From contig OX597821.1 in the NCBI GenBank assembly GCA_951406725.2, forward strand, positions 59,830,001 to 59,894,000: 64,000 nt of DNA, in the 5' to 3' direction. Within the stretch, counting starts at the first letter, position 1, and every line of letters begins with the position of its first letter. The translations under genes and the position numbers were made by a program. The notes below the pieces were generated by a model. That model searched no databases. It was not told where the DNA came from and was given only the letters and a program-made list of their open reading frames with translations. Source of the DNA: Octopus vulgaris. Taxonomy: Eukaryota. Positions 1 to 60,541 of this stretch are shown here, in pieces.

Positions 1-1596
1 TTCAGTAGCATATATACTCACAAGTCATGGTCCTGCATGAGAACACGACTTCATTTACTGACGGATGCTGAACAAAAAGGAAAATGACAGTAAAATATAA
101 AAAAAGTTTAAGACTGAAAGTTAGTCATGACTGGTTATGAACCCTAACGGATTGTTCTTTCTTTAAATCTTACAAGTAAGCTTTGCAATATAAAAAATAT
201 ATATTTCCTCCCAAATTCGTCGTTTTTGAAGAACGGGTTTATCAAAATATTTTGTTTCCAAGCTGAGAAACAAAGAAAGCAATGATTAAGCCGGTTATAT
301 GAATCAGTACATAGTAATAGATGGGATATTTTTTTAAAAAAAGTAGTTTCAGCAAAAAAATAACTAGGAAATTTTTTAAATTTAGCGAATTACTTTTGAC
401 TAAAGAAATTCAATTTTTTAATGAATTTTCATTTGGCAATAAGTCAAGAATAATAATACAGAACACGAGACCAGAGAATTTTTAAAGCCCTGCTCAAAAC
501 TAGATCTTGAGAAAAATATTGCATCACTTAATGTTAATCAACTTAGTTATGAAATATACCAATTGTATTTCGTTAGAAAGGGTTTTTATATTGCAAAATA
601 GATAACTTCAGAGTAATTAGATTTGAAATCAATATACATAATAAATTCCGATATTTAGAAAATACTAAACTTAAAAACTAAGGACAAAAAAAGAGAAGGC
701 TGGATTTTCTTATTTAATATTTTATTGGGTGATTATTATGTGGCCAAGAAAGTAAAGCGCTCCGGTTAACTCAATGTATTTCAACATCTATGTTCCTCTC
801 CAAATCCTGCCGAGATCGACTTTTTTTAATTTTATTTTTAAGCGTCGATAAAGTAGAATCGATCCAACTGACTTGAACCATTTAGTGAACTAATCAATTT
901 TCAAACTTTGATAAGCTACATATAGGGCAGGCGGAGATGGGGGGGAGACAATTTCAAATTTGAAACCCTGACATTGTTTGTCGGTATTCCGAAAACAAAC
1001 CACTGGTGAGAGGACAGTAAAGCAACACTTTCCTGGAGAAATGGAAAGAGAGAGAACGAGAGAGAGAGAGAGTAAAGCAACCCCCTTTATATCCAAGACT
1101 TAGGCCAGAACTAATTGAAACGTGATCAGTGTCAGTAGCGAGAGAGAGAGTGAGAGGAATTCACACCGATTGGTTGACACCAAACAAACCAACAACTTTA
1201 AATTCGTTGTCTTTAGGGAAATTAATTCACACATGCAACAATAATACACCAAATAAAACGTGCTAAGACACGTGAATATAACACTTTCCGTTTATGAATG
1301 TCCTCAAATTAATTTTACTCAAAATAAATATACAAAACGCAACTAAAAATAGAAAAACAACGCTAGAAAAAAGTTTAGTGTCCAAAATTAAAAGATATAT
1401 TAAACAGGTAAATCATGCTAATTTATAAATTACTTTTGGTAATTATACAGTAAGCGTTAGACATACAAGGAATGAAATAAAAATTATTCGTCAATTCTAA
1501 ATAATTTCGAAGAGTTTCATCAAGAGAGGCAACAAAAAGAAAACAAAATTAAACACCATATGATGAAGTTTAATTATAAAAAGAAAAATAATTTAC

Positions 1597-1733
1597 CTGT
1601 CAGTTCTAAGTTCACTTAGGTTCATCGCCAGATTTGTAACAGGGGAATGCAAGTTTCCATTGTTTTCGCCTTTAGTTATCGACGAATTACAATCTAAAGC
1701 CATTAGTTGTAACGATCTTCCAAAATTAGACAT
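1597..1733 (-). CDS. CDC25: Probable first coding exon of a Cdc25 (M-phase inducer) phosphatase; remaining exons probably lie left of the window
   Basis: ATG at 1733 opens MSNFGRSLQLMALDCNSSITKGENNGNLHSPVTNLAMNLSELRTD, ending at a strong CAG|GTAAAT donor (phase 2). SPVTNL..(M/L)..L matches the conserved N-terminal motif of Cdc25 (human CDC25A LSPVTNLTVTMDQL). The catalytic domain is not visible. Confidence 0.65.
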
Positions 1734-2069
1734 TTGAAGAGTTTAAACGATGGTGCTCAGCTGAAATTCGATATATTTACGATATAACAAGCAAGAACTA
1801 CTCAAACTAGACTTTCTGGTAAATATCAACAGAAATTTCTTGTTAACGCTGTCCTCGTGTCTCTAAATCTCTCCAAGAGGGTTTAATACCGATTATTTCA
1901 ACCACAAAGAAGTGTTTAGTAAATAGCTGTAGGCGTGATTAAATAATTTTTTTTTAAAAAACTCATTCAACCTTATTTTTTTTTCTACAAACTAAAGAGG
2001 CACAGGCGTTTTGTGGGGGGTTTTTTTGTTTGCTATAGGGTAAATAAATAAACGTTACAAATAGTTATT

Positions 2070-2440
2070 ATCGCAGATGACGTGTAAATGTACATTCGTG
2101 GTTTTTAACGCCAATTCGGTGTGCTAAAAGAGCACTAGGGTGGCGACTGGCCTAAGATTATCTTGGTCAACTAACAAGGATTACTTAGAAAACGTCGGCG
2201 CCACAATTTTCAAACATAAATTTATTCGAGCCAATCAACAACCAGCATTTACACAGCTCCCCTTATTGCATATAGTTATACACACTTGAAAATTAAAATC
2301 TCCAGAAAAATATATTTTGTTCATTTACACCCGTCTTAATTGTGATTTCGATTCTAAATCTAGACTTTATATAAAAAAATAATTCGATGTTTTATTTTGA
2401 TTTTGAGTCCGAAGCGCATGCGCCATGTTTGGCGGGAACT
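2070..2440. promoter_or_regulatory. Bidirectional TATA-less promoter shared by cdc25 (-) and SLBP (+)
   Basis: Lies between divergent ATGs at 1733 and 2474. Motifs seen: TGACGT ~2078; CCAAT at 2111 and 2231; GGCGCC at 2197 followed by TTCAAA (reverse CHR TTTGAA) at 2209-2214; NRF1 GCGCATGCGC 2414-2423; YY1-like CGCCATGTT 2421-2429; E2F TTTGGCGGGAA 2428-2438. CpG is visibly retained. Confidence 0.7.
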
Positions 2441-2473
2441 TATCAGTTGATTACCAGTCATACAAATATTAAC

Positions 2474-2556
2474 ATGGATTCGTTATCGGCTGCCACTTCC
2501 ATTCATAATGTATCTTTTCCTGATAATAATAGAATGACCACTCCGCGCAGGAACAA
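2474..2556 (+). CDS. SLBP: SLBP exon 1 (predicted): MDSLSAATSIHNVSFPDNNRMTTPRRN(K)
   Basis: AACATGG start just downstream of the E2F/NRF1 cluster. Phase-2 donor AA|GTTCGT joins in frame to the exon at 5238. Contains a TTP motif like the SLBP phosphodegron. The donor is non-optimal; the alternative start is the ATG at 5254. Confidence 0.55.
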
Positions 2557-5237
2557 GTTCGTATTATCACATCAGTTTTTTTATCGTATATTCCTTGTTG
2601 CATGCGAAACTGAAATCTTACTGCTCTGCTGAAATTTATTTCAGTCACTTGACAATCTTTCATCAACCTTTACAGTTTATATTATTCTATTTTAGCGGCA
2701 TGCTACCAAAGCCTTTCACCGCATATTACCTTCTTGAGATCTATTAATTTCACATTTTTATTTATTTCACACAATGGTTATTAATTTAGATATAATTGAA
2801 AATAGGAATTACAGTGCGAATTGGAATTCTTCTGAAACTCGATCGCTTCGAAATATTTGTTTTAAGCTCGCAAACTTGTTTCCCTACAAGTGGATGGAAC
2901 GATCGGATCCAGAAGGTTCTTTGTACATAATCCTTTATAGTTTAGCTTTCTTGTGTATTAACTGCTAACACTGAAGTCCAGCGATTATCCATATCGCGCC
3001 ATCTTAATACTCTCCCCTCCTTTTTGAATCCATTTCGACATTGTTTATGTTTTTCTTCATCTGGCGCTCTTTGCTGATCGAATGAAATTCTACAACGTAA
3101 CGTTCAGGACCAACGGCATAAATTTAGGCGGTTATTTATCAAACCACGAAATCTTCAATTCGGTTTTTATAATTACAAACAAACATTTTTTATTTTATTG
3201 TTTTAGAAAAGAAAATAATGACAAATAATTAAAAAAAAAAAAAAAAGAAAGCACAGGAGAGGATGAATTCATTAAACAATATTAAAAATCTGTTTCCTCG
3301 AGAACAATATCGAAGAAAAGTTTACGAATCAATTGAGACAAAAAAAATTGGGTTGTTTTTTTTTCGCGGGATAATGTTATAAGCGATCGTTGAAATATTA
3401 ATCAAAGGTCACACATCTATGAAAGGGGTCAACCGATAATTGTGTGGAAGCTCGATTAATATATTATCCCGAATTTTGGCATCTCCTTCCACTTGTGGAT
3501 TTTTTAAAGTTCTTATTTTTCAGGTTATAGAAGCACTCTCAATGATGTCTTTATTTTTACTATAGGATGGTCTCGCGGCGTAGCGCAATTAATTCTAAGA
3601 AAGAATCAATTCCAGGACCAGAACTTTCTCGACCATGGAATTTGAACTTTGCACAGAGTGCCGCAAGGTATTTTATCTAACACTCTGCCAAACGGTTCAA
3701 CTTGAAGGGCAGACTCTATAAAGCCATAGAATATTTCTTCCGGCTCTTCAAATCCCGCCAAACTCAACCCTGCTTTTTATCCCTCCGGCATAGATAAAAT
3801 AAAATACCTATGCTGTGAACAATAAGCTAGTTGACAGCGATGGGTTCGCAAAATCTGTGTTCAGTCGAGGATCATCATTGCATTTAATCCTTCCAAGATC
3901 AATATCGTGAATACACGAGTTAATCTAGTCATCTGTACACATCGTCTAAATTTGACTAGTCTCTTATTTTATTGTCATAATAAAAACGATTCCGGAATAA
4001 ATTGTAAAGCCCAAGCACTAGGATTTTGTTAACTTAGTTTGCGTGTATATACTGCTGCAAGAACATGTTTTATAAGATTTTACTTTTTTTTTTATATTTC
4101 AATTACTGCTATAAAGAATAACACAGGTTCAGGCGTGAACATCTAGTTTTTTGTTTTTTTCTATACATACATATGGTTTAAATGAAGATGGTACATTTTC
4201 ACTTGAAGATATTCGGTTTCCATTTCTTTAGCAACAAATCTTTTGCCTTTGTTTCAATAAACCACTTTAATAGGAAATACACATCCACATATATATATAG
4301 TGATCATTTTGCGTCCGATTTTCGTGGTAGCATGTTTGACGGGCCCTCACAGTGTGCGCTCGTGTTTTAATGCGTATTCTGGATTTCAACGTGGAAAATT
4401 AATTAAAATGGGAAGCAACTCGAATTTGAAATCTTATGGCGATTTGGATAGTTTGAAGAATAACTGATTGGAAAATAAAAAGCTTATGTTTATGAACTGT
4501 CAGTGTTTGTGGAAAGGAACTTAGAAATTACAATAAGATCAAGTTCTGAAAAATTCCATTGTATCCCTTTTTGCATTTGTAATGAATATATTTGTCACCA
4601 TCCACCGGTTTGAGAGTCGGTGTTTCGGTCTAGACATAATCGTCAAGGGGAGAGAAATAAACATTATATTGAATCAACATATTTTGTTATCATTAAGCAC
4701 CAGGCTGACGTTAGTCGGAAAAAACTATGATTAAAGATGTTCCAGTTGTGACTACCTCATCTTTTTACGGGTATTTAGAACTATATTATCGAATATGTGA
4801 TCTGAGAATATAATTGACGAAAAGGTGAAATAATTTTTAGAGAATCTGTTGCTTGTATTGCGCTTATGTGCAGTTCGGTATTTAGCTTCGCGTTTCCGAA
4901 TTCGGGGTCGATAAATGGGTACCAATTAGATGTCGGAATACTTTTTGATCGAGTGTGACCATTTTATGGAATTGGTCTTGTTGAATAGCAGAAATTTTCT
5001 GTCACCTGTGCTCTAATTAATTAATGTATGGATATTGCTCATTTTACTTTACATCTCCTATAGGAATGAAGTATGAAAACCTTTTTACTTCATAAATATA
5101 AAAGATCTGATCTGATATTGTAGTTATCTTGTCACATAATATTTTGTTATATTCAATTAACCAAGTTAATACCTTACTTGTCTGAATTTTCTCCCATAGT
5201 TCTTGTTTCACCTGGTAACTTTTCTTCATTGTTTCAG

Positions 5238-5324
5238 AGATGATCGAAGACAAATGAGTGAGAATTCCAGTCCATTACGTAGTCCACTCAGAAGAGACGA
5301 CGCCTGTGCAGGACAAAACTCAAG
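5238..5324 (+). CDS. SLBP: SLBP exon 2: DDRRQMSENSSPLRSPLRRDDACAGQNS(R)
   Basis: TTTCAG acceptor, AAG|GTCTAT donor, 87 nt, phase 2/2, in frame with the next exon; SP sites. Confidence 0.7.
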
Positions 5325-8300
5325 GTCTATTTTGCTTTTTATTTCCTACATGTTCTGGGGAAAACACAGAATAAAGGTCTGTGCTAGATACTGAGTGTAT
5401 CATTATCATTAAATACCCAGTTTCCAAGCTGGCCTGAACCGGACAGTTTGACGGGATTTGGCATGGTCTCTGAATAGTGGGGGGGGGAAACCCTCACGAA
5501 TAACTGGTGCTAATATTTGAAAAGGAGGTGGCTTTATATCAGGTGAAGAAAGCCAAAGTATCAGTGGGACAAGCACATATGTCTTCATAAAGGAAATACA
5601 TGACTATCCAACATAAAGGACAGGTGGTAAGTAGTTGGGAAGAAGATAAAGATGGTAGTGATGGAGTGCCAGAGAAATTTTTCAATGTCCAAGAAGGTAA
5701 GCATAAGAGAGGGTACCATCTGCTTTCCATGCTGGGTAGTGTAATAATATCAAATCCTGCTGGGCTGAAATTTTTCTTGATATCTTCAGGTAAAGGAACC
5801 ACATAGGCTGCCTCTATCTTATCACTCAGCCTTCTAGGAATATTGGCTTCCCTCAATACAATACTGCACAAAAGTGAAGCATAGACTATTACCAGTTTTT
5901 AGCGCTCTTTTTCTTATGCTCTATTAATATTGTTGGGTAGGGAATGAAAGTAAAAATATTTTTGCTGAAGTAATTGACTTTTACTAATTTTCACTAACTG
6001 CCTTTTGATGCATAGAAAGGTACCTAGAGAAAGCAGAGAGAAGTAGTTAAATGTTTCAAGGTTAAAAGTGGTTATATGCTGAGGAAGTCAACTCAGAAAG
6101 AAATTTATAGAGTTGAGTGAGTGAGTTTGCAGTGGTGGGTGAAAGAATATTGGGAGGTGTTCTCACATTAGTAACAAAACTGTATGTATACTCTGCATAT
6201 TCAGCAACATGCAATATACAGTGAAGCAGCTAAGCTAGAAAAATGCTGTTGCTTATTTATAGGTAAAAAAAAATAATGCTACCTGTTGGCCTTGCTCAGC
6301 TGTAGTGTAATACATCTAATGTTACTAGGTCTGTGCACATTAACAGTTATATATTTCTGAAATTTAGTGATCCTGCCTGTGATCTCACAAAGCTTCTACC
6401 TGTCATTGTGTGGGTGTCACCACTGTTTCCGATGGATTGACACCCAGGGTAAGTAGCTGTCATGTGCTCTGCTTTGCCAAAATGTAGCTAATGTTTGGTT
6501 CAGGGCAGCTTATTGCCATATTCACTGCCTGTATGAAGAAATCATTCCACTATCCTCTACCAGGGGTTCTCCAGGTTAGAGTTCTTTCTCCTAATCCTAT
6601 TATCATCATTTAATATCTGTTTTTGATACTGGCATAGGTTGGGTGATTTGAAAGAATCTGATGAGTTGCAGAGCTGCATCAAGCTCCAATAACAGCTTTG
6701 CTATGGTTCCTATAGCTGGATGCCCAACACCCATCTCCATGCAATTGGTACAAGAGACTTGCAAACACTCTTCAGCAAAGTGGAAAAATCCATGAAAGAT
6801 GAGTGAATGTTATATGTCTTTCATTATGTATGCAAGGGGCAGGGTCACCGTATCTAGTTGGGTGTTTATCTGATTTAGCAATTACACTCACAGAGTGGTT
6901 GGCGTTAGGAAGGGCATCCAGCTGTAGAAACATTGCCAGATAAGACTGGAGCCTGGTGCAGCCTTCTGGCTTCCCAGATCCCCGGTCAAACCGTCCAACC
7001 CATGCTAGCATGGAGAATGGATGTTAAACGATGATGATGATGATGAATGCTTGACTATGAATGGCATTGGTGCTGGTGCAACTCCTGGCATTGCCAGCAT
7101 GGAAAACTGATGTTAAATGATGATTATAAAACTAGTTTTTGTATCTTATATATACTGTGTATACACTGAAGCAGTGTTTTAGCATTAGCTACTTTTCAAG
7201 AGCCAATTTGTATTATGTCGTAGAAATATTAACATCGTGTGTTGGATCTACTCAGAAAAGACATATGGTTACTTCATGACCTTAGTAGCAAAGGGGAGAG
7301 AAACTTGAGGCCTTGTCCAAATTCTTGCAAATATGCACTCTGTTAAATGAAACCAAAGGCTGCATATTATATTTCCTATTTGGTGCATTCAACCATTATG
7401 TTTGCTGATTGAATTACATATTTTTATTTTCCTCTTGCTCGTTTTTATTTGTTCTTTCATATATTGAGATTTTTGCATTGGTCTTTGTATTCATTTTAAA
7501 TCTTGTGTATATTACAGAGATAATAATCAAAAGCTTCATCAACGACGTTATCGCTATAAGCCCCAGGAATTTCCTCCTCTTCCGACTACTCCAGAATGGT
7601 GAGAAATTTTCTTTGTATTTTAAATGCGTTTGTGTCTGAGCAACTAAAGTGGGTTCAACTAGGCTACTAAATGGAATCTCAAGCAGTATCATTAGGTTTG
7701 GTGCATTATTTCCTGTTTCAGTCAACTAACTTAGATATAGAGAATCCAGCTGTGTAATATTTGTACCAAATGTCCAGCAATAGTATCCTATCACTTGCAG
7801 GACCATTGAACCATAAGTGGTGTAGAAAAATATTAAACATATGCATTCTGTGGGTTGCTGAATGAGGGATCTTGAAAAGCTGTTTCAGCAATAATGTACT
7901 TATAATGGTTGATACAATTTTATGGTTCTTCGTAACCCTGTCAGTGCAGGTTCCACTTATGAAGTGGTTGGCATTTGGAAGAGTATCCAGCTGTAAAAAC
8001 TTTACCAAAACTGACCTTCCCTGCTGTGCTTCTGCCACGTAAAAAGCACTAAGTCCACTGCTTGGTGGTTGGTGTTAGGAAGGGCATCCAGCTGTAAAAA
8101 TTCCTGCCAAAACTGTCACAGGCTTCTGGCTGGCCGACTCCTGCCAAACCATCCTACCTATGGGAGGTGGACATTCACCTGTGCTGTGTGGTTGTTGTGG
8201 CCTTTGTAACAGTTGCTGTATGTTTTACTTTGTATTCTAATCATCATCATCGTTTAACGTCTGCTCTAACTTGTTCTTAATTTCTGGAGAGGCTACATTA

Positions 8301-8663
8301 TTGATTATGTTGTAAGCATATTCTTTTTCTATAGGTGCCATGTCCAGAATGTAGGACATAAGCGATCATGCCTTCCCACAATTCTCTGACTGTCTTTCTT
8401 TTGTTTTTTACTTCTTTCAGTCATTGGGTTGTGGTCATGCTGGGCCACTCACTGCCTTGAGTGTGTTAATAGAATAAATCAACCCTTGTACTTATTCTTT
8501 TGTTTCTCTTTTGCCTAACTTAAGTTACAGGGGACATAAGCACCAACATTGCTTGTCAAGCAGTTGTGGGTGACAGACACACATGCATGATGGGCTTCCA
8601 CACAGTTTCCATCTGCCAAGTTCACACACTGTGTACATTGCTGTTACTTTCGTTTCCTTGCAG

Positions 8664-8795
8664 GACTCCTCCAGCTCAGGCTACAACAGGGGTTGAGTGG
8701 TCCAAGAGAGCCACTCCTAAATCTGAGGTTGACTTAACATGCGATCTCCAAGATTACGAACATCGAGCCAGGCAAGAACATAAAAGCTTAAAAAG
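8664..8795 (+). CDS. SLBP: SLBP exon 3: TPPAQATTGVEWSKRATPKSEVDLTCDLQDYEHRARQEHKSLK(R)
   Basis: Polypyrimidine tract plus GCAG acceptor, AAG|GTAATA donor, 132 nt, phase 2/2. Confidence 0.8.
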
Positions 8796-8896
8796 GTAAT
8801 AAATTGCTTTCTTTGTTGTTTCATTTATATCGTCTCGTAGAGCAGTTTGTTCTAATAATGCTGATGTTTACTCATTTACTTTTGCTTATTCACCAG

Positions 8897-8944
8897 GTAT
8901 TGCCGTAAACTAGAATTGAATCAGAGAGGAAGAAAGAATACAGA
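8897..8944 (+). CDS. SLBP: SLBP exon 4: YCRKLELNQRGRKNT(D)
   Basis: CCAG acceptor, GA|GTAAGT donor, 48 nt; RYCRKL aligns with the vertebrate SLBP RYKRKL cyclin-binding motif. Confidence 0.85.
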
Positions 8945-10589
8945 GTAAGTGATTTCCTTTTTTTAATCATTAAGTTGTTGAGATTTTAAATCTGTGGAGA
9001 TAGAGAGGATTATAAGGGAGCTATATGCATGGGTCAGATAGGATTTAGTGAAACGGATTTTCTACAGCTGGATGTTTTTCCTGTCACTAACTCACCCCTG
9101 CTTCCAGATATGGTAATATTTTCCCACAGCTAGGCATCTTTTGTTCATAGGTGACTAGAAATCAATAACTTTACTTGTATAACAGTGACATTCATTTACA
9201 ACCATCATGTGATGTTATAGCATAGGGACACATATAGAGAGAGGGGTTTATATGGTGGGTGTCTTTTACTTTCCAGCTACTGAATCCTCTCTCAAGGATT
9301 TTGTAGGCAGTGGACACCCATGGTGCTGCACAGTGGGAGTGATCCAAGAATCATGGTTCGGAAGCAAGGTTTCCCAAGGAGTTTTTTTATGAGCAAAAAG
9401 TGGGAGTTGCATTATATTTGAGATACGGTTATTGGTAGTGCCCCAGCATGGCAGCAATTTAATGACTGCAACATGTTATAGAATATGAGTGTGTACATCT
9501 GAACATAAGTTAGTGTGTAGAATAGAAGCATGCAAAAGAAAACATACATTTGACATTACCATGTTGTATGAGAAGGCAATTGTCATTATTATCATTTAAT
9601 GTCCATGTTCCATGCTGGCATGGGTTGGATGGTTTGAGAGAGTCTAATGGGTTCAAGAATAGCATTGTGCTGTCTGCTTTGGCATGGTTTTTAATGTTGG
9701 ATGGCCTTCTTTATAGTGTATACTGGCTGTGTTTTTTTTCATTCAACTAGCACTAGTGAGTCCGGTTACCTTGCACCTCATGAAACTACAAACCTTGAGA
9801 GGTGGGGTGCTTTATGCTATGATATAAGAGGGTGGAAGCTGAGCAGGTTCTTCTTGTAGAGGTGCTACATGGCTGCTCTCATTTGAAGAGGGGGTAGGAA
9901 TAATCAGTAGGAGCTGCAAAGAGAAAATATTTTTATTGGATGTTTTCAAACCAGTCATCAGGAATTGGGGTTGTGGGTAGGAGTCCATTTAAATTGACTG
10001 TACCTGGCCAAAATAATCTACCTGTTTTATCTTCAAATTGGCCATATCCAACCTTACAATAACCCTAAAGTATCATTGTAGAAATAAACAGTCGCATTAA
10101 AATCTCAAAGCTACAAGGCGATGCATAGCAAGTTCAAATCTGTGTAAATGAATAAACATTACTATTGACACAAATCTGAATGCCAAAGAGATAACGTACC
10201 TGATATGCTTAGCTGCAAGTCAGCTCTGTGGGAGCAGTTACCCTTTTAGCATTCGGGTTATGTTGGAAAATGTAATGCTTATCATTGTTTTGAATTAATC
10301 ATGTTTTCTAGTTTTGAGATTGTAGTGATGTGAGAGACTGGATCTGGTCAGTTTGATCATTAAACAGGTAAATTAATGATTAAAGATTTATATACAGATA
10401 AATTGTTCTAACATCCACTTTTTCATGCTCGCATTGGTCAGAGTGCATTTGTGGAAGCAGGTATGGTGATATTTCCCTGTAGCCAGGCATGTTTTCACTG
10501 AAGACTGAAAATGAAAAGTTTCGCTCGTACAACAGTGACAGCTTGGTAAACAGTAATGATGATGATGATAGCAACATAGGCAGTATTAA

Positions 10590-10813
10590 TCCTTTAGCCT
10601 TTAAGCCAGCCATATCTGGGCCATGCATGCTACCTGTTTTATTTTCTAACCATCCAGATCCGGCCTACCACACTACCCTTCAGAACCATTCTGAAAATAT
10701 ACAATCACATCACCAAAATTTCATACCCATGAAATAATGCGTGATTAATAAAAAAATAAATAATTTGAATGAAAAAGTATTACATTTGGCAGAATTATCT
10801 GAATGCTAAAGGA
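10590..10813. mobile_element. TTAA-specific (piggyBac-like) MITE; further copies ~13748-14112, 15599-16183, 48170-48330, 48715-48927, 61390-61597
   Basis: TTAA flanks and (C)CCTTTAGC...GCTAAAGG(G) TIRs; internal sequence shared across copies. Confidence 0.75.
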
Positions 10814-11139
10814 TTAAACATGGCTCTTCTGTTAGAACAGACTATACTGTGGTAGTTATCATGAGAGAAATTCTCATATTGGCTTTTAGTGCAAAATATA
10901 CTCTTGTTTATATTGCTGCTGAGGAGAGACATCCCCACCAGCACCAAGATCACCAGATTCCGTAATTTCAACCTTTCTTGGTTTTGTCAATGATGGATGC
11001 TTGACTGCTAGAGATAGGGATTCAACTCCCAATGATATATGGAATAACAATGCCAGAAAATATGCTGGTGTTGTGATTAGCCACTGAGCTTGTTAAAAAT
11101 ATAATTTTTAACAAGCTCACTGGGTGTATGTCATTGCTG

Positions 11140-11540
11140 GCAGGTTTATGCAGTTGAGAAGCTTGCTTCCCAACTACATCGTCACAAGTTCAGGTCCACT
11201 GTGTGGCACCTTGGATGAGTGTCTTCTACTGTAGTCCCAGGCTGACCAAAGCCTGCCTCATGGGTGAGTTTAGTTGAAGGAAAGTGAAAGAAGCCAGTCA
11301 TGTATGTGTACCTTTTACCTTGACCTCACATGATGGCCGTAAATGAGCATCACCATCATACAAGGGGTGTTGATTGTTTCTGGTCTACCATGGAAAAATG
11401 TGTCTGTTCATAGGAAATATTAACTTGCTTGGAAACAGGTGAGGGCTGGGGACAAAAAATGTAACTGGCTGTTGAAAATATACCTCAACAAATTCCATCT
11501 GACCCATGCATGCATGAAAAGGAGGGTAGATGATAATGAT
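11140..11540 (+). mobile_element. SINE with a family-A head and an RTE-type 3' tail; other copies ~55760-56135(+), 56870-57200(+), 9050-9370(-), 46545-46915(-), 50390-50775(-)
   Basis: Same head as family A, but ends GACCCATGC..GCATG(G)AAAA...(GAT)n. Confidence 0.7.
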
Positions 11541-12813
11541 GGTGAAATGCTGCACAACTTTGGAAACCGTCTTTTTGGTCGTGATACTAGAGATATAAGG
11601 GACTAACAAAAGATTTTTCTGTACCCCATGTTTTCCATACTGGTATCATTGGATGGTTTGACAAGATCTGGTGAGCTTCAGGGCTGTGTCAGGCTTCAAT
11701 GTCTGCTTTGGCATGGTTTCTACAACTGATGGTGAAGGCCCCCTCAGCTTTGTAGGTGGTGGGTGGGTGGGTACTTGAGAGGGCAGGATTATACTAGATT
11801 TCAAGAGGTGTCTTGCTATAGAGGAGATGCATGGCTATCAGGTATATTATATAAAGGTGAATGGGAATAGCTGGAAAGGAACTAGAGATGGTGGTGAAAT
11901 CTGGAATGAATTCATTCTCACTTCCAGTGTTTCTGCTAAACTTGGTATCATCATCATTTTTTACTTCCTTGTTGGCATTGGTTGGATGGTTTGAAAGGAC
12001 CTGGTCGATGCCCTTCCAAACGCCAGCCACTATACAGTGTGTACTGAGTGCATTTTATGTGGTATCAGCACCAATGCTTTGTTATCTCTACTGGAAATAG
12101 TCAATGAATGTGATGCGAGTATTAATTTAGTTCAGGTGTAGAACATTATAAAGATGATGTGTGGACTGGAGGAATGTCTCTCCTCTCCATCCCACCCACC
12201 CCTAATTTATTTGGCACAAATTTCAAATCATGAAATGTTAGGAAAGGTTCAGCATGCATGTGTTTACCTTGTGAGGTCATGTTATCACGAATGGAATATA
12301 AGGTTCATGGCCCTAGAAACCTTCTCAAGTCCTGACAGACTACGCAACCCATGCCGGTATGGAACATGGATGTTAATTGATAATGATGATTTATAATTAC
12401 AGGCAGTATTTAGTGGATGGGTTGGTAATTAAGGACATTGAGTGGCAGGCTGTTAAAACAATTATATTTTTCAGATGTTGATGATTAGTAGCAATGCTAA
12501 TGATAGATCTCTTTGGGATTCTGGTTGGGTTTTGATATTATTTGGAGCTCTTATAGTCTGTGTCTTATTTTTATCAGTAGTAGTAGTAGTACAGCATTGT
12601 GCTAAGCAGATTTGTTATGTCATTGGACAAAATGCTCAGCAGCATTTCTTTCTGCTTTATGTTTGTGTTCAAACTCCACCAAACTTTGCTTTTCGTCATT
12701 TTGGGATCGATAAAATAGGTACCAGTTATGCACTTGAGTCAATGTAATCACTAATTTTCTCCCCCAAAAATATGGGTCTTGTGCTTATGGTAGAAAGAAT
12801 TATTATTATTATT

Positions 12814-13140
12814 ATTACCTCCATCTTAGCGAAGGTGGGGGTATTGTTTTCATTCGTGTTTGTTTGTCTCAAGAATCACTGGATGAATTCAGATGAAACT
12901 TTCAGGGATGTTTGGCACAAATTGATTAGATTCGGGGATTGGTCTGGTACCCGACAAGGATTCTGGTTTATTTTTCCTGTTCTTTTACTTTTTGAGAGCA
13001 GTCGGGTTCATTTTTAGTATTCTTATTTGTGAGAGCAATCAAGTTTATTTCAGATATTCTCAATTTAAAAAGCATCTCAGGCTAATCGTTGAGAGAACAT
13101 TGGTGTTGCTTTGGAGGTTTGCACTCTATGAGTGTTCTTG
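12814..13140 (+). mobile_element. Helentron-associated (HINE/DINE-like) element; second partial copy ~36032-36225
   Basis: Subterminal ACCTCC...GGAGGT inverted repeat plus 3' hairpin GCACTCTATGAGTGT. Confidence 0.6.
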
Positions 13141-13199
13141 TTGTTGTTGTTGCTATTGGTGGTGGTGGTGGTGGTAAGAATTATCATTTTTATTTTTAG

Positions 13200-13310
13200 C
13201 AAACCGACTGAAATTGAAAGTGATCCAAACATTCTGATGAGGAGACAGAAGGACATTGATTATGGCATGAACACAATTGGTTACGACAATTACGTCAAAG
13301 TGATTCCAAG
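13200..13310 (+). CDS. SLBP: SLBP exon 5, N-half of the RNA-binding domain: KPTEIESDPNILMRRQKDIDYGMNTIGYDNYVKVIP(R)
   Basis: Clear match to human [38 protein letters not shown] acceptor and AAG|GTAATA donor. Confidence 0.95.
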
Positions 13311-13451
13311 GTAATATTTTCTTTTCACTTAAACAATTCTTGTTCTCAAATTTTACAGATTTATTTTATTTTAAGAATATTCACAAATGCTGTATAAAAC
13401 ATGTAATATTTCATCAATGGTGGGTGCTCATCTTCTCTTTATTCTTTGCAG

Positions 13452-13583
13452 GCATAAACGGAAAAAGACTCATCCCAAAACTCCTAATAAGTACCAGAAA
13501 TGTAGTCGCAGGTCATGGGATGGACAGATGAGGAATTGGCGTATTGCACTCCATCAATTTGATAACGTTACTAGTTTATCACG
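13452..13583 (+). CDS. SLBP: SLBP exon 6, C-half of the RNA-binding domain: [43 protein letters not shown](R)
   Basis: HPKTPNK and SRRSWD..W..ALH hallmark motifs; TTGCAG acceptor, CG|GTAGGT donor. Confidence 0.95.
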
Positions 13584-14125
13584 GTAGGTACTCTAAATTT
13601 GGTACATAACTGAGTTCTTAACTATTTTGTAACCAGAGCAAGCAGCGATGTTTGTTTTCACCTAAAAGCAAAATCTTACAGGTACCTCCTCCTGCTCTTC
13701 GTTTTGACTTAGTAGTTTACTGCTGAAGCAAGTTGTATATCTTTAAACCCTTCAGCATTTAATCTGATCAGATCTGGCCTCTCAAACCCACCCCACAATG
13801 TCATTCTAAAAATAAACAGCAGCCAACCAAAGCCTTGTGAGTGAATTTGATAGGAAGAAACTGAAAGTAGCTCGTGTGTATATTTGTGTTTTGTCCCCCA
13901 CCACCATTGCTTGGCAATCAGTGTTGGTGTGTTTACATCCCTGTAACATAGTGCTTCAACAAAAGGGACTGATAGCATGAGTCCTGGGGTTAATGTCTTA
14001 GACTAAAACGCTTCAAGGCAGTGCCCCAGAATGGCCACGGTCATATGACTGAAGCAAGTAATAAAAGAATAAAAGGACATTTGACTGACAGGGTAATCTG
14101 AATGCTGAAGGGTTAACTGCTGCTT

Positions 14126-14487
14126 TCACTGTTAAGGATATTGAATGGAAATAACAATCGCAGTGTGGAAGGTGTTTATAAGCCATTTACAAACACAAGA
14201 ATCATTAGATTCACTTCAACATTTAAATTTTATTTGCCAAAATATTTTCTTGCTTCAAGACTGCTGACAAAATTCCGTGCTGCGGAACAGAATTTTGTCT
14301 GATCAGGTCGCAGTCTCAAAGTGACAAAAATATTTTGGCAAATTAAATTTAAATGTTGAAGTGACTCTAACAGCTTTTGTGTATTTTTTAAATGGCTTAC
14401 AAATACCTTCAGTGCTGCAATTGTTTTTGTTTCAGCACACGATTTCATATCAGGTCACTTGCTATGCAAGTGCATCTCCGTAACTGA
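14126..14487. mobile_element. Foldback/palindromic MITE in the last SLBP intron
   Basis: ~110-bp inverted arms (14153-14262 / 14310-14425) around a central small hairpin. Confidence 0.75.
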
Positions 14488-14566
14488 AAATAAATTTTAT
14501 CTTTAAAAAAAAAAAAAAATAATAATTGCTTAAGAATTTTGTTAAATGTTCTTTTGTTCCTTTCAG

Positions 14567-14810
14567 AAGTGACTCAGTTACATCTGATAATTCGTCTGAA
14601 ATTTCCAACAGTGCTGTCAGTGAAGAAGTTATTGAAGAAGAGGATATTGGTTTTGATATTGATATTGACCTTGCTCTTGAGTCACCTCCATTGTCTCCAT
14701 CTAAGGATAGCCTGGCTTCGCCATTGGAAGAGACAGTAATGCTTACAGATCCATCTTCAGAGAATCATGTTCCTCGTGCAGTTCTAAGTGCAACTGATAA
14801 CATCGAATAG
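14567..14810 (+). CDS. SLBP: SLBP last coding exon: acidic/Ser-rich C-terminal tail ending at TAG
   Basis: TTTCAG acceptor in phase 2; SDSVTSDNSSEISNSAVSEEVIEEEDIGFDIDID...NIE*; acidic tail typical of SLBP. Confidence 0.85.
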
Positions 14811-19355: not shown

Positions 19356-22193
19356 AGAAACATCCTAAACTACAGAACATCAGAGAAACTGATCTGTTTC
19401 TTTAAATAAATACATTTACAGTAAAATTTTATCATGAACCTTTAAAACATTTCTGTCGATCCCCAATTTACTATTTTCCTTCTGTAGACTCCCTTCCCTC
19501 CCACCAAAAAAAAACTTATAAGGACCAAGTTGTAATATTCTACAATAGATATACCATTTATTAAAGTTAAGTAATTACAATGTAAAAAGCAGCCGACTTT
19601 CTTTGTGAAATTCCCCTGAAAACTTTCTCCCAAGGCCTTAACACATCTACTTTTACCAATAGCTTTTACTCAATTACACACAGTAACAATTATCCAAGTG
19701 TTCATTATATTATAGACATACTCCACTCCAAAATATTTTGATGTCTCTATAATGGTCCAATGTAACTTTCCTTTTCTCTACATCCTGTGCGTCTAATGTT
19801 CTATCTGCTGCTAAAATGTCTTTTGCTGGACATCCACTTCCTGGAATGAGACAACTGGGTGCAGACTGAATGCTGGACATTCAACCTGTTTTGGTAACAA
19901 TATCTTTTTGCACTGGAAACAGACACACACATACACATGTATGTGTGCACAGAATTATACGCATACAGAGAGGAGTGTGACATTACAATTTATTAATTGG
20001 ACATGGCTAATGTAAACACTTTCTCTCTCTTCATACACGTGAAGAGAAATATAAGTAAAAAGAGAGAGAGAATGTGAGAAACATTAAAATGTCTGATGTC
20101 AAATTGCATTGAATCAACAATGACAAACAGGCAGGGCAAAGACACCTCATACCCTCTACTTCTTCCATTGGCTTGACTTCCAGGCAAAGCTGTGTGGTAA
20201 GAAGTTTGCCTTCCAGTCACATAGTTCTGGGTTCAATCCCAGTGTGACACCTTGAGCAAGTGTCTTCTACTACTGCCCCAAGCCAACCAAAGCATGAGCA
20301 GATCTGGTAGATGGAAACTGAAAGAAGCCTGTTGTATGTGTGTGTATGTATGCATCATCATCACTATTTAACGTCCGCTTTCACTGCTGGCATGGGTTGG
20401 ACAGTTTGACAGATGGCTGCACCAGGCTCCAATCTGATCTGGCAGAGTTTCTACAGCTAGATGCCCTTCCTAACTGCATAGACATAGATATATCTGTATA
20501 CATGATGGAGTCTCCCATTGATGATGATGTATGAGTGTTCAGCTTTTGCTAAACAACCTGCACAGCTAATTTGTTTATAGCAAAAAAAAATAAATAAATA
20601 TCAAGCTTTGAAAAAACTAAGTATTGGTGTCAATTCATTTGACTTCAAGGCGGGGCCCCAGCATGGCCACAGTCCAAAGACTGAAACAGGTAAAAGATAA
20701 AGCTCAAACAGTTAAATAATGTTTAATAATATCAAAACATGAATACTATGTATTCCAAGAGATTCCTAATAGAAGGTTGGCCCTTTAATTACATATAATA
20801 TTGCACATTAAATTATAACTGTCATCTTCTACAAGTCTTACAGTTATTAATATTTCAAAAACCACATCAAGAAGACTTGCCTTCCTTTTAAAGAAATACT
20901 TCAGTTCTGAGCAGCAGTTGACACGTCACAATCTCTAGTGTATTCTTATCATTAGAATGATATACTTCTCTTTGTAAGTAGAATCCTTCAACATATTCAC
21001 AACTAAGTCACAGACAGAACTGCCAGATTTCCTTTATTGTAAAACACATACAAAGAAACAAAATTTTAAGAAGCAGAACAATAGAATATTCCGTTCTACT
21101 ATAGGCACAAGACCTGCAATTTTGGGGGAGGAGGCTTGTCGATTACATCAACGCCAGTGTATGACCGGTACTTAATTTATCGACCCTGAAAAGATGAAAA
21201 GCAAAGTTGACCCTGGTGGAATTTGAGCTGAAAATGTAAATGTGGCTAAGCATTTTGTCCAGTGAGCTAATGATTCTGCCAGCTCATTGCCTTAACTTTG
21301 CTGCTATAAGCACAAGGCCTGCAATTTTGGTGGAGGAAACAAGTCGATTACATTGACCCCAGTGCATGACTGGTTCTCTTAATTTATCAACGCTGAAAAG
21401 ATGAAAAGCAAGGTCAATCTCAGCAGAATTTGAGCTGAGAACAGAAATGCTGCTCAGGATTGTATCCAGCATTCTACCTGCTCATTGCCTTAATAAGCTC
21501 TCTACAATAAGTTCAAGGCCTGTAATTTGGGGAGAAGGCGCCAGTCAATTACATTGACCCCAGTGCTGGATTGGTCAAGAATAAAAGGTACAGAATTTGA
21601 ACTCAGAATGTAAATATTGCTAAGCATTTTGTTCAGCATAGTAATGATTCTGCCAGCTGGTTGCCTTAGAACAATAGAATAACAAATAGCATTTAATATC
21701 TATATGAATTTATATAAGATTGATTCTACTGTATCCAAAATGGTCCCGAATTCTTCATTTAAGTGGCCGTCAAATATGTACCAGGGTCAAAAATTCTAGC
21801 ATATTAAGTCTGAGCCTCTGAACTGCCATTGAAAATCACATCATTTGTGAATATATTTGTTGAATATTTCTAACTAAAAACAAGTTGAAATGATGGCATA
21901 TCATCATCATTATCAACATCATCAATTAACTTTCATTTTTCCATGCTTGCATGGATCAGATGGAATTTGTTGAGGTAAACAAATTCTATCTATGTCGCAA
22001 ATAGCCAGCAAATTAATTATTTGCAACGGCTTATCAAAAATTAATTATAGTGATATTCTATATATCACAGAAACGAGATTCAACTGGCAAACAGTGATCG
22101 GATGCCTCCCACTGATGATTTCCAGTAGAATGAAATCATGTGATACAGGAATTCTGATGCTCATGACAGATGATTCTCATTTGCTACAGTCTA

Positions 22194-54803: not shown

Positions 54804-54866
54804 TCAATCTCCTTGATTCACAACCTCTGAAGCATCAGCTCGGCATATCGGGCATGTCCGATTTGT
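54804..54866 (-). CDS. RNF38: RNF38/44-like last coding exon: TNRTCPICRADASEVVNQGD*
   Basis: NRTCPICRADASEV completes the RING-H2 domain; TGA at 54806-54804. Confidence 0.96.
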   Translation of the reverse strand, partial: TNRTCPICRADASEVVNQGD

Positions 54867-55358
54867 CTGAAAAAGCAAAACAATAAGCCATTGTAAAGAC
54901 ACAGGAATACGCGAGGTAGTATTTCATTTCATAACAGAATTTATAAAAGATCAAAGCTGTAATACATTAAACAGTATAATTTACCATACACAGTTTTACT
55001 CTAACCAAATTGACTTTTGCCTGTCCTGAATATCACATGAGATACACAAGACACATTGCTCTGGTATCCATGCATCATATGTGATACACATTCCCAATAT
55101 TTTTCAACCACTGCAGTAACTTGGGATTTATGAAAGGAAAACTTTATATTACACAGAATGTATGAAAGAAGAGTCTGAAAACAGGCATGGACATTTACAA
55201 TAAACTTAAGAAAATACTTTGGACAGGCAAAGGGTGAAAAGACTATAAAAGACTATTACAAAGTTGATTTTTTTTTTTAATACTTATTGCTGACATTTTA
55301 TATAAAACTTTACTTCTGTAACATACATTAATTAGATGTGTTACAGAGTATCTCTCTA

Positions 55359-55664
<306 letters not shown>

Positions 55665-56758
55665 CTAGAAAATAAAATCAAAGATAATTTTGATTAATCA
55701 TAACTAATTAAGATGGGGGAGTGAAAGAGAAGTATACATTTCAGAAGAAGAATTTGTGACAGTGTGGTTAAGAAACTTACTTCCCAATTACGTTTCTGGG
55801 TTCAGAAACATAGCACCTTGGGCAAGTTTCTTCTACTATAGCCAAGGGTCAACCAAAGCCTTATGAATGTGTGTATATACACATGTGAGAGAGAATTGAT
55901 GTTGTCTTGTGCTGACAGCGCATGACAGTTATAAACAAGTGTTATTGTCATACAACAGTGTCCATTTCTAATCCTCAATGAAAACATGTCTGGCCATAGG
56001 GAAATATCATCTTACTTATAAACAGATGAGGGTTAGTGACAGGAAAGGCATCTGGCAGCAGAAAATCTGCCTCAATGGATACTGTCTGACCCATCCCATA
56101 CATGGAAAAGTGGGTGAAATGACAATGATGAAGATGATGACAGACTGAGTGGTGCCAGAAGCCAGTATAGTGTTTTTGTAATCTGAAGTCCTGTGTGCCA
56201 GTCAGAGTCTAATGGAAATAAGAATATATCTCCAGAAGAGAGGATTGTCCACTTTGGTGTTCACAGCACTAGATCCAAAATGTGACTATTCATAAAACTG
56301 CAGTCTGCATTTGCTATACGTTGAAGAAAAGATTCAACACACATACACACACTGACTAAACAGCTATACGACAGAAATTAATATTAATCATACAGCTAAT
56401 ATGAAATAATATATATAGCATTTCATGACAGAAAAGCTGCACAGGAGTATCAGATGCACCCTAATTTCAGCAGTGCATAATCAAAGAAACAAGGGTTTTA
56501 GTGAATTAAAGCTTATGGAAGGCCCAACATCACATATAGGGATCAGGGTAATATTTTGAGACTTTTCTGTTGTTTTGAAAGGAAGTGAACCTTATATGCT
56601 GTCAAATACAGTATATATACATCTTTCTCGTTGAACACTTGGTTGCAATTAATATTAGAATTTTGTCCAGACAGCTTTGAAATAATTGTTTTATTTAACC
56701 CTTCTCATATTAAGTTTCACAAGGTTACATCTATAATTGCAATATAACCCATACCTCT

Positions 56759-56761
<3 letters not shown>

Positions 56762-56811
<50 letters not shown>
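56762..56811. repeat. (GA)n microsatellite in an RNF38/44 intron
   Basis: Direct reading. Confidence 0.98.
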
Positions 56812-56814
<3 letters not shown>

Positions 56815-57313
56815 ATTTTAAAACTAGTTTTTCATATACACAGATAGGCATGAGTCTGGCTTGTAATAGGCACAAGCACAGCTGTATGGTTAACAAGTTT
56901 GCTTCCCAAGCACATGGCTTCAGGTTCAGTGCTAATGCCTGACATCTTGGATGGACTAAAGCCTTGTGAGTAGATTTGCTGGATGGAAACTAAGAGAAGC
57001 CCATTGCATGTATATGTGTGTGTGTGTGTGTGTATTTCTTTGTCTTGACGTTGTAAATAAATGGTATTCATTTCCAATATTCTGCAAAAACTCGTCTGGC
57101 CACCCTTGCTTGGAAACAAGGAATGGTTGGTGACAGGAAGGGCATCAAGTCATAGAAAATCTGCCCCAAGCAAGCATGGAAAAGAGGATGTTAAAACAAC
57201 AATGAAATGAGAGGGAGGAATTATTCAAGTTCTAATATATTCTAGAACTTTCATTTGACACAGTTTTAATAATAATTAGGTTAGTTGTATGGTAATAATC
57301 CATAGTAATCTAC

Positions 57314-57398
57314 CTCATAATTTTCCACTTCAGCAGCAGCATCCTCATTCAGTTCAACATTATATGTAGCTGGCATGGGTGGGTTGCCCAACATTGCT
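57314..57398 (-). CDS. RNF38: RNF38/44-like exon: AMLGNPPMPATYNVELNEDAAAEVENYE
   Basis: Ends in the conserved EVENYE; phase 2 in, phase 0 out; canonical splice sites. Confidence 0.92.
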
Positions 57399-57457
57399 CT
57401 AAAAATAGAAAAAGAGGAAAATGAGCCTGAGAACAGTTTGAAAGCAGATCTGTTTAA

Positions 57458-57669
57458 CCTTTTCGTTACCAACCTGGCTAAAATCAGCTCTGAGTACAAA
57501 TGTCTTGTTTTTATAAGTTTTGAATTAAAATCTTCCTCCACACCTTAGTCACAATTTATGTTCCTAACACGCTGAATGATAACTAAGTTATTTTACTAAA
57601 TTCTTTGTTACATTTAAGGTAATTGAATGAAAGACAGAGCATCTCAAAATAAATACATTAACGAAAGGG
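57458..57669. mobile_element. Second TTAA MITE family, in an RNF38/44 intron
   Basis: TTAA|CCTTTTCGTTA ... TAACGAAAGGG|TTAA. Confidence 0.75.
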
Positions 57670-58159
57670 TTAAAATCTGAAGCCTGAAAGATAGTAACTA
57701 AATATCATATCTATATAAGTAACAAAAAAGAGTAATGAAATTTTGAAAGAGAGAAAAAAAAAATAATAAATAAAATTGTGTACCGTTATCTCTAAACTAT
57801 GTACATACATTTTGTTAAATGACGATGATTTGTACAGCATCGGATTTTTGTACATACTGACTACTAAAAATTAGAGGGCACATTGTATATAATAAGCAGT
57901 GAGTGTTAGTATTTCGACTTAGAGTAAAGGTGTGATTAGTCTGATTTATTATAATTACTCCATAAAATACATTGAAAAGTACTGATATCATAAATGGAAT
58001 AAAAACAAAAAAATTTTTTTGAACTTCACTGGTGCACTTGCTGTAAGTCAACATTTTAGAAATCACACTTTTCAATTTTTTTTCATGGAAAGTGCAAATT
58101 ATATAAATAAATATGGTAGGTAAATTACACTTTAATTAAGATTTTATCATTCAACTTAC

Positions 58160-58269
58160 AAGAAATGAAGTAGAAAGCCTGGGTAGGCAGTAGGTGGGGG
58201 TGCTGGAGCAAAAGCACGCATTCGGTTTCTACTAAGAGCCCGCCGAGGATATAATCGCGAAAACTGATC
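58160..58269 (-). CDS. RNF38: RNF38/44-like exon: DQFSRLYPRRALSRNRMRAFAPAPPPTAYPGFLLHF(L)
   Basis: TGTAG acceptor, TT|GTAAGT donor; resembles human PRRLTGRSRYRSQQPIPPPPYHPSLLPYVL. Confidence 0.88.
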
Positions 58270-58725
58270 CTACAATACAAAGAGAAAACAATAACTAATA
58301 CATCAGAATTTCTGGTAATAAATAAGAGTTAAATTTTATAGTTGTACATTTTAATTCCTTCATACAAAAGACAGGAATATTAAAAAATCACAATCAGCAA
58401 AAAATAAAGAAATAATGGAAAGGCTTTTGATAGGAGTCTGTCAAATCAGTTTGGATACAGGTACAACATTAGTTTTCGGGAACCATTGATTTCAAAACCT
58501 TTTTGGAGTAATGACTTTTTCCAAAGCAAGGATTACTTTGGTCAACACATACTAAAGTACTCAAATTTAAAATTTACCTAAATGATTAAATGAAATACGG
58601 ATAACTATACATTAGTGGAAGTTAGTGTGGATCATAAGAGGTTACAGACCACTAGTGTCTAGAAAGTTGGTGTGGTACCTATATGTTTGTCTTTCTTGTT
58701 GAAAGTGTGTTGCAGAATTACTTAC

Positions 58726-58872
58726 ATAAATGTCTTGTGTTGCTGGGTGAAGTGTTGATGGTTCCTGGAGCATAATTGGTGGTGAGGGATTGAGAGGAGA
58801 GACATGGTGTACAGGAGTAGTTAATGAATATGTTGGGCGATGTTCTGTGATTATCTGTACATCATCATCTGG
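58726..58872 (-). CDS. RNF38: RNF38/44-like exon: PDDDVQIITEHRPTY...PATQDIY
   Basis: TTTTGCAG acceptor, TAT|GTAAGT donor, 147 nt, in frame. Confidence 0.8.
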
Positions 58873-59633
58873 CTGCAAAACAAAACAAAACAAGGAAATT
58901 GTTTAAACGTCTTAATTCATTTTAATATGGAGACCAATAACAACACAGTGAATTATGCAATATCAATTATCAGACTGCAGCCATGATGGGGCAGTGTCTT
59001 GAAGAATTTCTTAATCGAATGATTCAACCCCAGTACTTATTTTTTTTTTTAAAGCCTAGTACTTATTCTATCAGTCTCTTTTGCTGAACTGCTAAGATAC
59101 AGGGACATAAACATACCAACACCAGTTGCCAAGAAGTGGTGGGGGACAAACACAGAGACAAAGGCGCACACACACATACATATATATATACATACAATGG
59201 GCTTCTTTCAGTTTCTTTTTACCAAATTCACTCACAAGGCTTTGGTGAGTCCCAAGGCTATAGAAGACACTTGCCCAAGGTGCCAAGCAGTGGGACTGAA
59301 CCTGGAACCAAGGTTCTCATCAAGCAGTCATATTATATTATATTATATTTGTTGTAATTATAGTTTTTATCTTTTACTTGTTTCTGTCAGTGGACTGTGG
59401 CCATGCCTCACAAAACCTTGGTTGGCCTGGGGCAATAGTAAAAGATACTTGTCCAAGGTGATGTGCAGAAGGAGAGAACCCAGAACCACATGGTTGCAAA
59501 GTGAACTTCTTAACCATGCGGCCACACCTTTAAAGAAATCAAACAATCTGGCAATGTGTGTGTGTGTGTGTGTATTCACTTTTTACTAACAAATTCCAAT
59601 TTCAAAGGAAAATAAATTGTAGTAAATACATAC

Positions 59634-60083
59634 CTGAGGTGGAGGTTGCGGATTAGGTGCAAACTGTGAAGGATGATGATGTGGGCCCGGGTGATGTGGT
59701 GGTCCAGGTGCTGTATTTATATGATGTTGACTGGACATATGTCGAGCAGCATGAGCGGCGGCAGCAGCTGCTGCAGCGGCAGCCATAGAATTCTGATGCA
59801 GCAGTGTTCCAGGAGGTGGAGCAGGAATAGCATGATGTGGAGGTGCATGTGGGGGAGCTGCATGATGACTGGCAGCTACACCTGGAGGAAGTTGTTGCAA
59901 GCTACAGGCCGGAATGTGCTGCATACTACATGATGGAATTGGAACACTGCATGGAGGAATGGACCATGTCGGCTGGCTAGCACACACTGGTAGGTGAGCT
60001 GTTGTACACACGGAACTAGGATGTGTGCCAGTACATACAGGAATAGCATATGGAGCAATAGTTACAGGAGCAGATACTGGAAC
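59634..60083 (-). CDS. RNF38: RNF38/44-like exon: VPVSAPVTIAPYAIPVCTG...QHIPACSLQQLP... with poly-Ala and His/Pro-rich segments
   Basis: 450 nt, phase 0/0, CAG|GTATGT donor; matches human [32 protein letters not shown]. Confidence 0.9.
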
Positions 60084-60378
60084 CTGGTAACAAAAGAAAA
60101 TTCAACTAAAATATCTTCTACAATATTGAATTAATTAAAACTAATCTATACTCAAATTATTCTATAAGCTGTTTCATTAAAATGTTTTTAGAAGAATATT
60201 TGAATTAAAATAGTCATCTATGTATCATAATAAATGTATACTGTTGACAGGCCATGCCTCAATTGCGCTTATTGGATTTAAAATATTAAAATTCAAAAAG
60301 GTTTCAAATTTTTACAGTAAAACTTAGACAAGTTTAGAGAAAAAAAACTGCATAAAAATGTTTGGAAAGAAATTTTAC

Positions 60379-60541
60379 CTGCTCCAAATCAAACATAATT
60401 GGTTGCTGGGGATTTTGGTGTCCCAGTAAGGCAGGGTGCATCTGGCAATTTGTTGCAGCTGTAGGTTGAAACGCTCTTCTATCTGGTGATTCACTGCGCT
60501 GAGTTGTGTTTCGTTCTCTAATACGCCGCCGCGTTATTGGG
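60379..60541 (-). CDS. RNF38: RNF38/RNF44-like E3 ligase internal exon: (S)PITRRRIRERNTTQRSESPDRRAFQP...PIMFDLEQ
   Basis: TTTCAG acceptor, CAG|GTAAAA donor; resembles human RNF38 SPPVRRQR...RAFHP...VMVDIHDQ. Upstream exons not found in the window. Confidence 0.8.

Follow-up and report, generated by a model that had tools for sequence, protein, structure and literature searches.

We propose, with a probability of roughly 0.6, that cdc25 and SLBP constitute an ancient gene pair and that a short promoter shared between them would drive SLBP early through E2F and cdc25 later through CHR/CCAAT elements, a reading modelled on the promoters of mammalian cell-cycle genes. The parts of this reading carry different weight: the linkage itself is, we consider, very probably ancient within the Bilateria, a phase-split promoter in which one element or more is shared is the arrangement that we moderately favour by analogy with mammalian promoter biology, and retention of the pair because of that coupling is put forward tentatively. 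The DNA analysed (the window) is a stretch of 64,000 nt from Octopus vulgaris (contig OX597821.1, positions 59,830,001 to 59,894,000), and a second animal is represented by the metagenome locus L005.

On the minus strand the window carries the first coding exon of cdc25 (1597..1733): an ATG at 1733 opens a 137-nt exon of 45 codons plus 2 nt, which encodes a conserved N-terminal SPVT-type motif and is followed after 1597 by a GT donor, the rest of the gene lying to the left of the window. Its peptide is 100% identical to residues 1–46 of P0001, an O. vulgaris M-phase inducer phosphatase-like protein, and 96% identical to an O. bimaculoides protein (two hits among four candidates), and the exon was also matched by 27 of 120 Cdc25 homologues (E<1e-3). 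P0001 carries the Pfam domains PF06617 (M-inducer_phosp) and PF00581 (Rhodanese) together with the Cdc25 active-site motif HCEFS.ER, the catalytic domain being encoded outside the window. Splicing was compared over 1200–5500 in four runs, all of them contigs which are recorded in no case as RNA, so that we can only guess whether they derive from RNA, and which reveal neither start site nor strand; contigs of X1 and X13 leave the window at 1595 in a loose end whose translation continues P0001, and X21 does not reach the cdc25 donor at 1595. The initial annotation had assigned this exon to Cdc25, and the assignment holds, given the full match to a protein with the rhodanese-fold domain and the contigs that join the exon to the next exon of that protein. 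At 1595 X14 has two contigs with differing loose ends (agreement 0.68), which a second acceptor or intron read-through may explain.

A long 5' leader of cdc25 is probable (1734..2200, minus strand, upper limit approximate): contig pieces at 1714–2145 (X13), 2021–2202 (X21) and 2141–2293 (X14) give a weak hint of a leader of ~400–500 nt, and a leader of that length would place the candidate CHR described below near the cdc25 start. Within this probable leader, minus-strand upstream ATGs at 1966 and 2095 open frames of 16 and 20 codons; upstream ATGs are also present in the L005 cdc25 leader, and translational control through them is possible. Extra short Cdc25 paralogues occur in several bivalves, abalone and chiton. 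In a catalytic-domain tree the cephalopod Cdc25 clusters with the short mollusc paralogues with modest support, and that tree does not settle orthology among the mollusc cdc25 paralogues, including which copy adjoins SLBP.

The plus-strand gene (2474..14810) is SLBP, as the initial annotation had it. Its eight coding exons (2474–2556, 5238–5324, 7518–7598, 8664–8795, 8897–8944, 13200–13310, 13452–13583 and 14567–14810) give an open frame of 305 aa, all introns being GT-AG, and the protein is identical at 302 of 305 positions to P0003, the O. sinensis histone RNA hairpin-binding protein. The histone stem-loop RNA-binding domain (Pfam PF15247) lies in exons 6 and 7, and the protein matches PDB SLBP chains. 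Exon 1 (2474..2556), which agrees with P0003, has a GT donor after 2556, and the joint from 2556 to 5238 (GT..AG) was observed in three of the four runs, whose RNA status is, as noted, a guess. Within intron 1 lies an in-frame, AG/GT-bounded segment of 102 nt (3566–3667, plus strand), and low-depth X13 and X14 contigs overlap parts of 3345–3727; we rejected the segment as an SLBP exon, since P0003 does not contain it and it is passed over in the observed joint, and it is possibly a minor exon or an intronic transcript. One X14 contig, inspected by eye, places letters of exon 3 (~7565–7593) ahead of exon 1 (2492) and off the splice sites, a join which we read as either a chimera or a circle-like product.

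Further along, an RNF38/RNF44-like RING gene on the minus strand (54804..60541, its 5' part extending past 60541) is convergent with SLBP; one of its exons is matched by three RNF38 chains (best E 8.5e-07), and the exon translations were also used. Between SLBP and the RING gene we recognized, by eye only, degenerate retrotransposon- or transposase-like pieces (~25300–26640, 22000–22900 and 28460–28900) and, likewise by eye, many short interspersed repeats.

Re-reading the geometry of the two genes upheld the head-to-head layout of the initial annotation: the divergent ATGs of cdc25 (1733) and SLBP (2474) are 741 bp apart, and no gene was seen between them, either in the window or in L005. For both genes the spliced contigs start with the first coding exon, and an intron in the 5' UTR remains compatible with them. 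An X1 contig runs unbroken over 1595–2556, a span which we discarded as a single transcript because X1 covers introns too. Both first exons stand at the centre of a CpG-rich domain (1..5000), with a CpG observed/expected ratio of 1.11 versus 0.30 in 5001–64000, and to judge from this ratio the domain is probably unmethylated.

Every motif that the initial annotation had named in the interval was found where it had been placed, and we assessed 17 patterns against 5000 dinucleotide shuffles of 1734–2473, the NRF1 and E2F patterns having been set before L005 was read. For NRF1, YY1 and NF-Y we used the strings that we take to be their consensus. The definitions of E2F and CHR elements follow the available sections of PMC5716687 and PMC4176359. 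Strongest is a palindrome of the NRF1 consensus at 2414..2423, a candidate shared activator site with a counterpart in L005: the exact form arose in 0 of 5000 shuffles and the degenerate form at P=0.0006, and it alone among the patterns clears the 17-fold correction. A predicted E2F site (2428..2438, plus strand), ~40 bp before the SLBP ATG and likewise with a counterpart in L005, reached P=0.008–0.014 for the two tighter of three patterns and 0.14 for the loosest; in the whole 64 kb, NRF1 has a single occurrence, as does each of the two tighter E2F patterns. The overlapping YY1-like motif (2421..2429, plus strand; P=0.023) is not conserved.

The elements on the cdc25 side are individually less distinctive. 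The candidate CHR (2209..2214, minus strand; TTTGAA on the cdc25 strand, TTCAAA at 2209), a predicted MuvB/DREAM site, is at chance level when taken alone (P=0.80 for the hexamer), and its candidacy is supported by a predicted CHR on the equivalent side in L005. A CCAAT box in NF-Y consensus context (2229..2237, plus strand, with CCAAT at 2231; P=0.063) lies ~20 bp upstream of the CHR with respect to cdc25, and upstream is where CCAAT boxes usually stand relative to CHRs according to the available part of PMC4176359; the other CCAAT (2111..2115, plus strand) lacks that context and is probably due to chance, the two together being no more than chance expectation (P=0.49). The initial annotation had also grouped GGCGCC with a CHR-like TTCAAA, and here one correction applies. 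The GGCGCC palindrome (2197..2202; P=0.033) is not a canonical CDE because a 6-nt spacer separates it from the CHR and because it lies 3' of the CHR on the cdc25 strand, the canonical CDE being described in the same source as sitting 4 nt upstream of the CHR (PMC4176359), and the hexamer itself is at chance level; a CDE/CHR tandem with a 4-nt spacer was found nowhere in the 64-kb window.

A metagenome scan with an SLBP alignment returned eight loci (L001–L008), among which only L005 combines a genuine SLBP gene with a sufficient length of DNA upstream of it; L001–L004, L006 and L007 were set aside, each having <1 kb upstream of the match, and L008 was rejected as an SLBP locus on account of its weak match (SLBP profile E 0.96). 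In L005, SLBP starts at 4896 on the plus strand and its RNA-binding domain PF15247 was confirmed. A further probable SLBP exon at 8849–8990 (plus strand) carries a tryptophan motif which, we presume, resembles the SLIP1-binding motif. Contig scans of genomes and viruses gave no SLBP locus. They did give one unrelated viral gene: a viral contig (L009; gene-dense, 19% GC, with no SLBP nearby) encodes at 9962–10543, without introns, a short catalytic domain resembling that of Cdc25 (37% identity, E 6e-25).

Opposite to SLBP, the minus strand of L005 carries exons that agree with the profile of the Cdc25 N-terminus. In a ranking of 4315 six-frame peptides, the five places directly behind the window exon go to collinear L005 minus-strand pieces (E 2e-4 to 0.68, one of them in another frame than that finally used), and the exon peptides joined with X scored 74.6 bits (E 6e-25) against a profile of 98 sequences, where the highest score was 5.6 bits among 200 shuffles and 67.6 bits among 200 permutations of the exon order. 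The intron after the SPVT motif is identical in position and phase in L005 and octopus. Tested singly, none of the five exons matched a Cdc25 Pfam model, and a tblastn search of 120 Cdc25 proteins against L001–L008 overlooked them, the list of open reading frames and the profile having detected them; L005 Cdc25 is known from its N-terminal exons, its catalytic domain lying beyond the available L005 sequence. The splice sites read in the sequence suggest an intron in the 5' UTR of L005 cdc25, and ~370 bp separate the donor of this intron from the SLBP ATG. As to the animal itself, a quick tree places L005 outside 12 mollusc rows on a long branch, not separated among annelids and deuterostomes; the L005 SLBP domain is 49–54% identical to mollusc SLBPs, compared with 66–69% between octopus and bivalves.

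Read from the cdc25 side, the L005 interval holds a CCAAT at 4633, a cdc25-facing CHR at 4642, NRF1 at 4659, CCAAT at 4706, 4709 and 4726, and E2F at 4754 on the same strand as in octopus. NRF1 and E2F occur once each in L005, both in the intergenic interval (P=0.003 and 0.018), and jointly in 0 of 3000 shuffles; four CCAAT within 373 bp have P=0.012, and a CDE-like tandem, GCGG-N4-CHR at 4642 on the cdc25 strand, arose in 18 of 5000 shuffles. Neither YY1 nor GGCGCC was found anywhere in L005. Common to both animals is therefore the order CHR/CCAAT at cdc25, a single NRF1, and E2F at SLBP, so that the claim that E2F faces SLBP and CHR/CCAAT faces cdc25, made originally for octopus, is supported by its recurrence. 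An ordered-architecture scan returned 2 of 253 windows and 2 of 43, all of them on the promoter, a result which is not independent because the scan was designed post hoc. The two promoters do not align and their spacings differ: the element at 17 bp from NRF1 is E2F in octopus and the CHR in L005. These predicted elements suggest that the DREAM/MuvB promoter rules extend to lophotrochozoans.

The neighbourhood is also recognizable in mammals. In the gene lists available from the respective papers the order is GFRA3, CDC25C, SLBP2, FAM53C in cattle (PMC7764440) and GFRA3, CDC25C, SLBP2 in pig (PMC6487013), given there without remark on linkage. As in octopus, a CDC25 gene is thus directly beside an SLBP gene; the mammalian partner differs in being an oocyte-specific paralogue, which human, mouse and rabbit retain only as a pseudogene (PMC7226043, as far as available). 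The initial annotation had argued for linkage from the human FAM53 neighbours of CDC25C and SLBP; cattle and pig uphold the association of CDC25C with an SLBP gene, and the link that this argument lacked turns out to be the paralogue SLBP2. Vertebrates have not kept the arrangement uniformly, since in five teleosts slbp2 adjoins zmat2 in opposite orientation, cdc25 going unmentioned in the available part of that report (PMC7255616).

Three lineages therefore have the pair, namely cephalopods, the L005 animal and mammals. For a further cephalopod, Argonauta, the evidence reaches only as far as a probable location of cdc25 and SLBP on the same chromosome, both being on contigs whose length is the same, 63,092,018. 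The mammalian genes are presumably head to head as well, an orientation that we take from human strand data. The proposal of an ancient bilaterian linkage is upheld to the extent that the L005 head-to-head pair and CDC25C–SLBP2 in cattle and pig both speak for it, its breadth being that of the three lineages sampled. Were the adjacency a coincidence with three independent origins, one each in cephalopods, the L005 animal and vertebrates, one would point to this sparse sampling, to the several cdc25 paralogues of molluscs, and to flies and nematodes, in which the pair is not known to be adjacent. We hold such a threefold origin to be extremely improbable, considering that L005 was retrieved by SLBP alone and yet its divergent neighbour is cdc25, that the chance of this per genome is ~1 in 10,000 if ~20,000 genes are assumed, and that orientation and motif order agree too.

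Taken as an ancient linkage, the pair would belong to the class of conserved ancestral microsyntenic pairs, and in particular to its head-to-head members such as HSPD1–HSPE1 (Irimia et al. 2012, PMC3514665): unrelated divergent genes, <1 kb apart in octopus, are linked across distant animals with a plausible shared promoter, and at most four intervening genes are allowed in that definition, cdc25 and SLBP being adjacent in the window, in L005 and in the cattle and pig lists. The available text of that study demands linkage in four or more major lineages, compared with the three found here, and our pair is unlike the class in that cdc25 and SLBP peak in different cell-cycle phases. The main text, as available, does not name cdc25–SLBP (PMC3514665), and the pair may already be tabulated in the supplementary list of ancient pairs. 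We found no paper on the linkage in the full texts searched, which leave out most subscription papers, and the supplements of PMC13508932, PMC9023564, PMC4595640, PMC9977687 and PMC11136973 gave no positional hit.

That the mammalian survivor is oocyte-specific (PMC7226043, in the part available) raises the alternative that the pair was kept for joint loading of maternal mRNA, serving meiotic resumption and cleavage, and not for somatic timing. Maternal cdc25c mRNA is, moreover, the topic of a reference title, and maternal loss of SLBP arrests early embryos in several animals according to the accessible portion of PMC6350959. Set against this are the somatic cell-cycle elements predicted in both invertebrate promoters and the TTP motif kept by octopus SLBP, which is absent from zebrafish Slbp2 (PMC6350959, same portion), and we consider an oocyte-based explanation improbable.

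Returning to the shared promoter, its proposed mode of action builds on the following statements from the accessible parts of the mammalian literature. DREAM represses early genes via E2F sites and late genes via CHRs, and E2F1–3 activates the early genes, MMB or FOXM1–MuvB the late ones (PMC5716687); a supplement row places human SLBP among the G1/S genes that DREAM binds and gives it an E2F-type element, and human CDC25C is a CHR gene (PMC4176359). In octopus, one NRF1 site plus NF-Y would keep the interval open; in non-dividing cells DREAM would repress both genes, SLBP by way of E2F and cdc25 by way of the CHR; SLBP would be fired at G1/S by activating E2F/DP, and cdc25 in S/G2 by MYB- or FOXM1–MuvB. 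Octopus SLBP contains TTP motifs, and cyclin A–CDK1, activated by Cdc25, would mark SLBP for destruction at the TTP motif, just as SLBP is degraded when S phase ends through phosphorylation of that motif by cyclin A–CDK1 (PMC6350959, in the section available). The pair would persist because its start regions lie a few hundred bases apart and a break would deprive one gene, or both, of elements.

The resemblance to the mammalian E2F (early) and CDE/CHR (late) promoters, which are bound by DREAM/MuvB, lies in E2F at the S-phase gene, in a CHR with an upstream CCAAT at cdc25 and, in L005, in the CDE-like tandem with its 4-nt spacing; what differs, as far as the available parts of PMC5716687 and PMC4176359 go, is that both modules here share one interval and face opposite genes. 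Octopus differs further in being without a CDE, and binding in octopus and L005 is predicted. The human head-to-head pairs described in the accessible text of PMC4176359 also differ, only one partner having been cell-cycle regulated.

This last point bears on the main rival, namely that the linkage is ancient but passive, two independent promoters standing back to back with nothing shared and breaks within a few hundred bases being rarely harmless. E2F at SLBP and a CHR at cdc25 would be equally expected of two such promoters, and what favours passive linkage is that a CHR did not make the partner gene cell-cycle regulated in the human pairs, acting on one gene only (PMC4176359, in part), that the timing of SLBP is controlled largely by translation and proteolysis, and so mainly post-transcriptionally (PMC3764509, in part), and that the pairing has been lost or degraded in vertebrate lineages (available parts of PMC7226043 and PMC7255616); the differing NRF1 position and spacings in octopus and L005 point the same way. 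Against it, a single NRF1 site stands between both gene-specific modules in each animal, and head-to-head layout and co-expression are over-represented among conserved pairs in general (PMC3514665, as available). On balance we judge passive linkage unlikely, and the phase-split promoter with a shared element remains our preferred reading. We add, as a more doubtful extension, that the bilaterian ancestor may have had histone mRNA processing and mitotic entry on one two-faced NRF1/DREAM promoter, with E2F towards SLBP and the CHR towards cdc25. Octopus and another invertebrate would still have this layout, and the oocyte CDC25C–SLBP2 pair would be all that vertebrates kept of it once their genome had doubled.

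Finally, conserved neighbours are known in bulk and few have a promoter logic that can be read. The present pair consists of one early and one late cell-cycle gene, and its order of E2F, NRF1 and CHR/CCAAT recurs despite promoter DNA that does not align, so that it offers a natural test, left open by the human data, of how one short interval times two genes differently; it also explains why CDC25C and SLBP2 are neighbours in mammals, namely as a remnant that was inherited. The pair would be an ordinary old linkage if nothing is shared. If the two-faced promoter is real, one set of elements would start the S-phase supply of histones and, later, the CDK activator that ends this supply through the destruction of SLBP.
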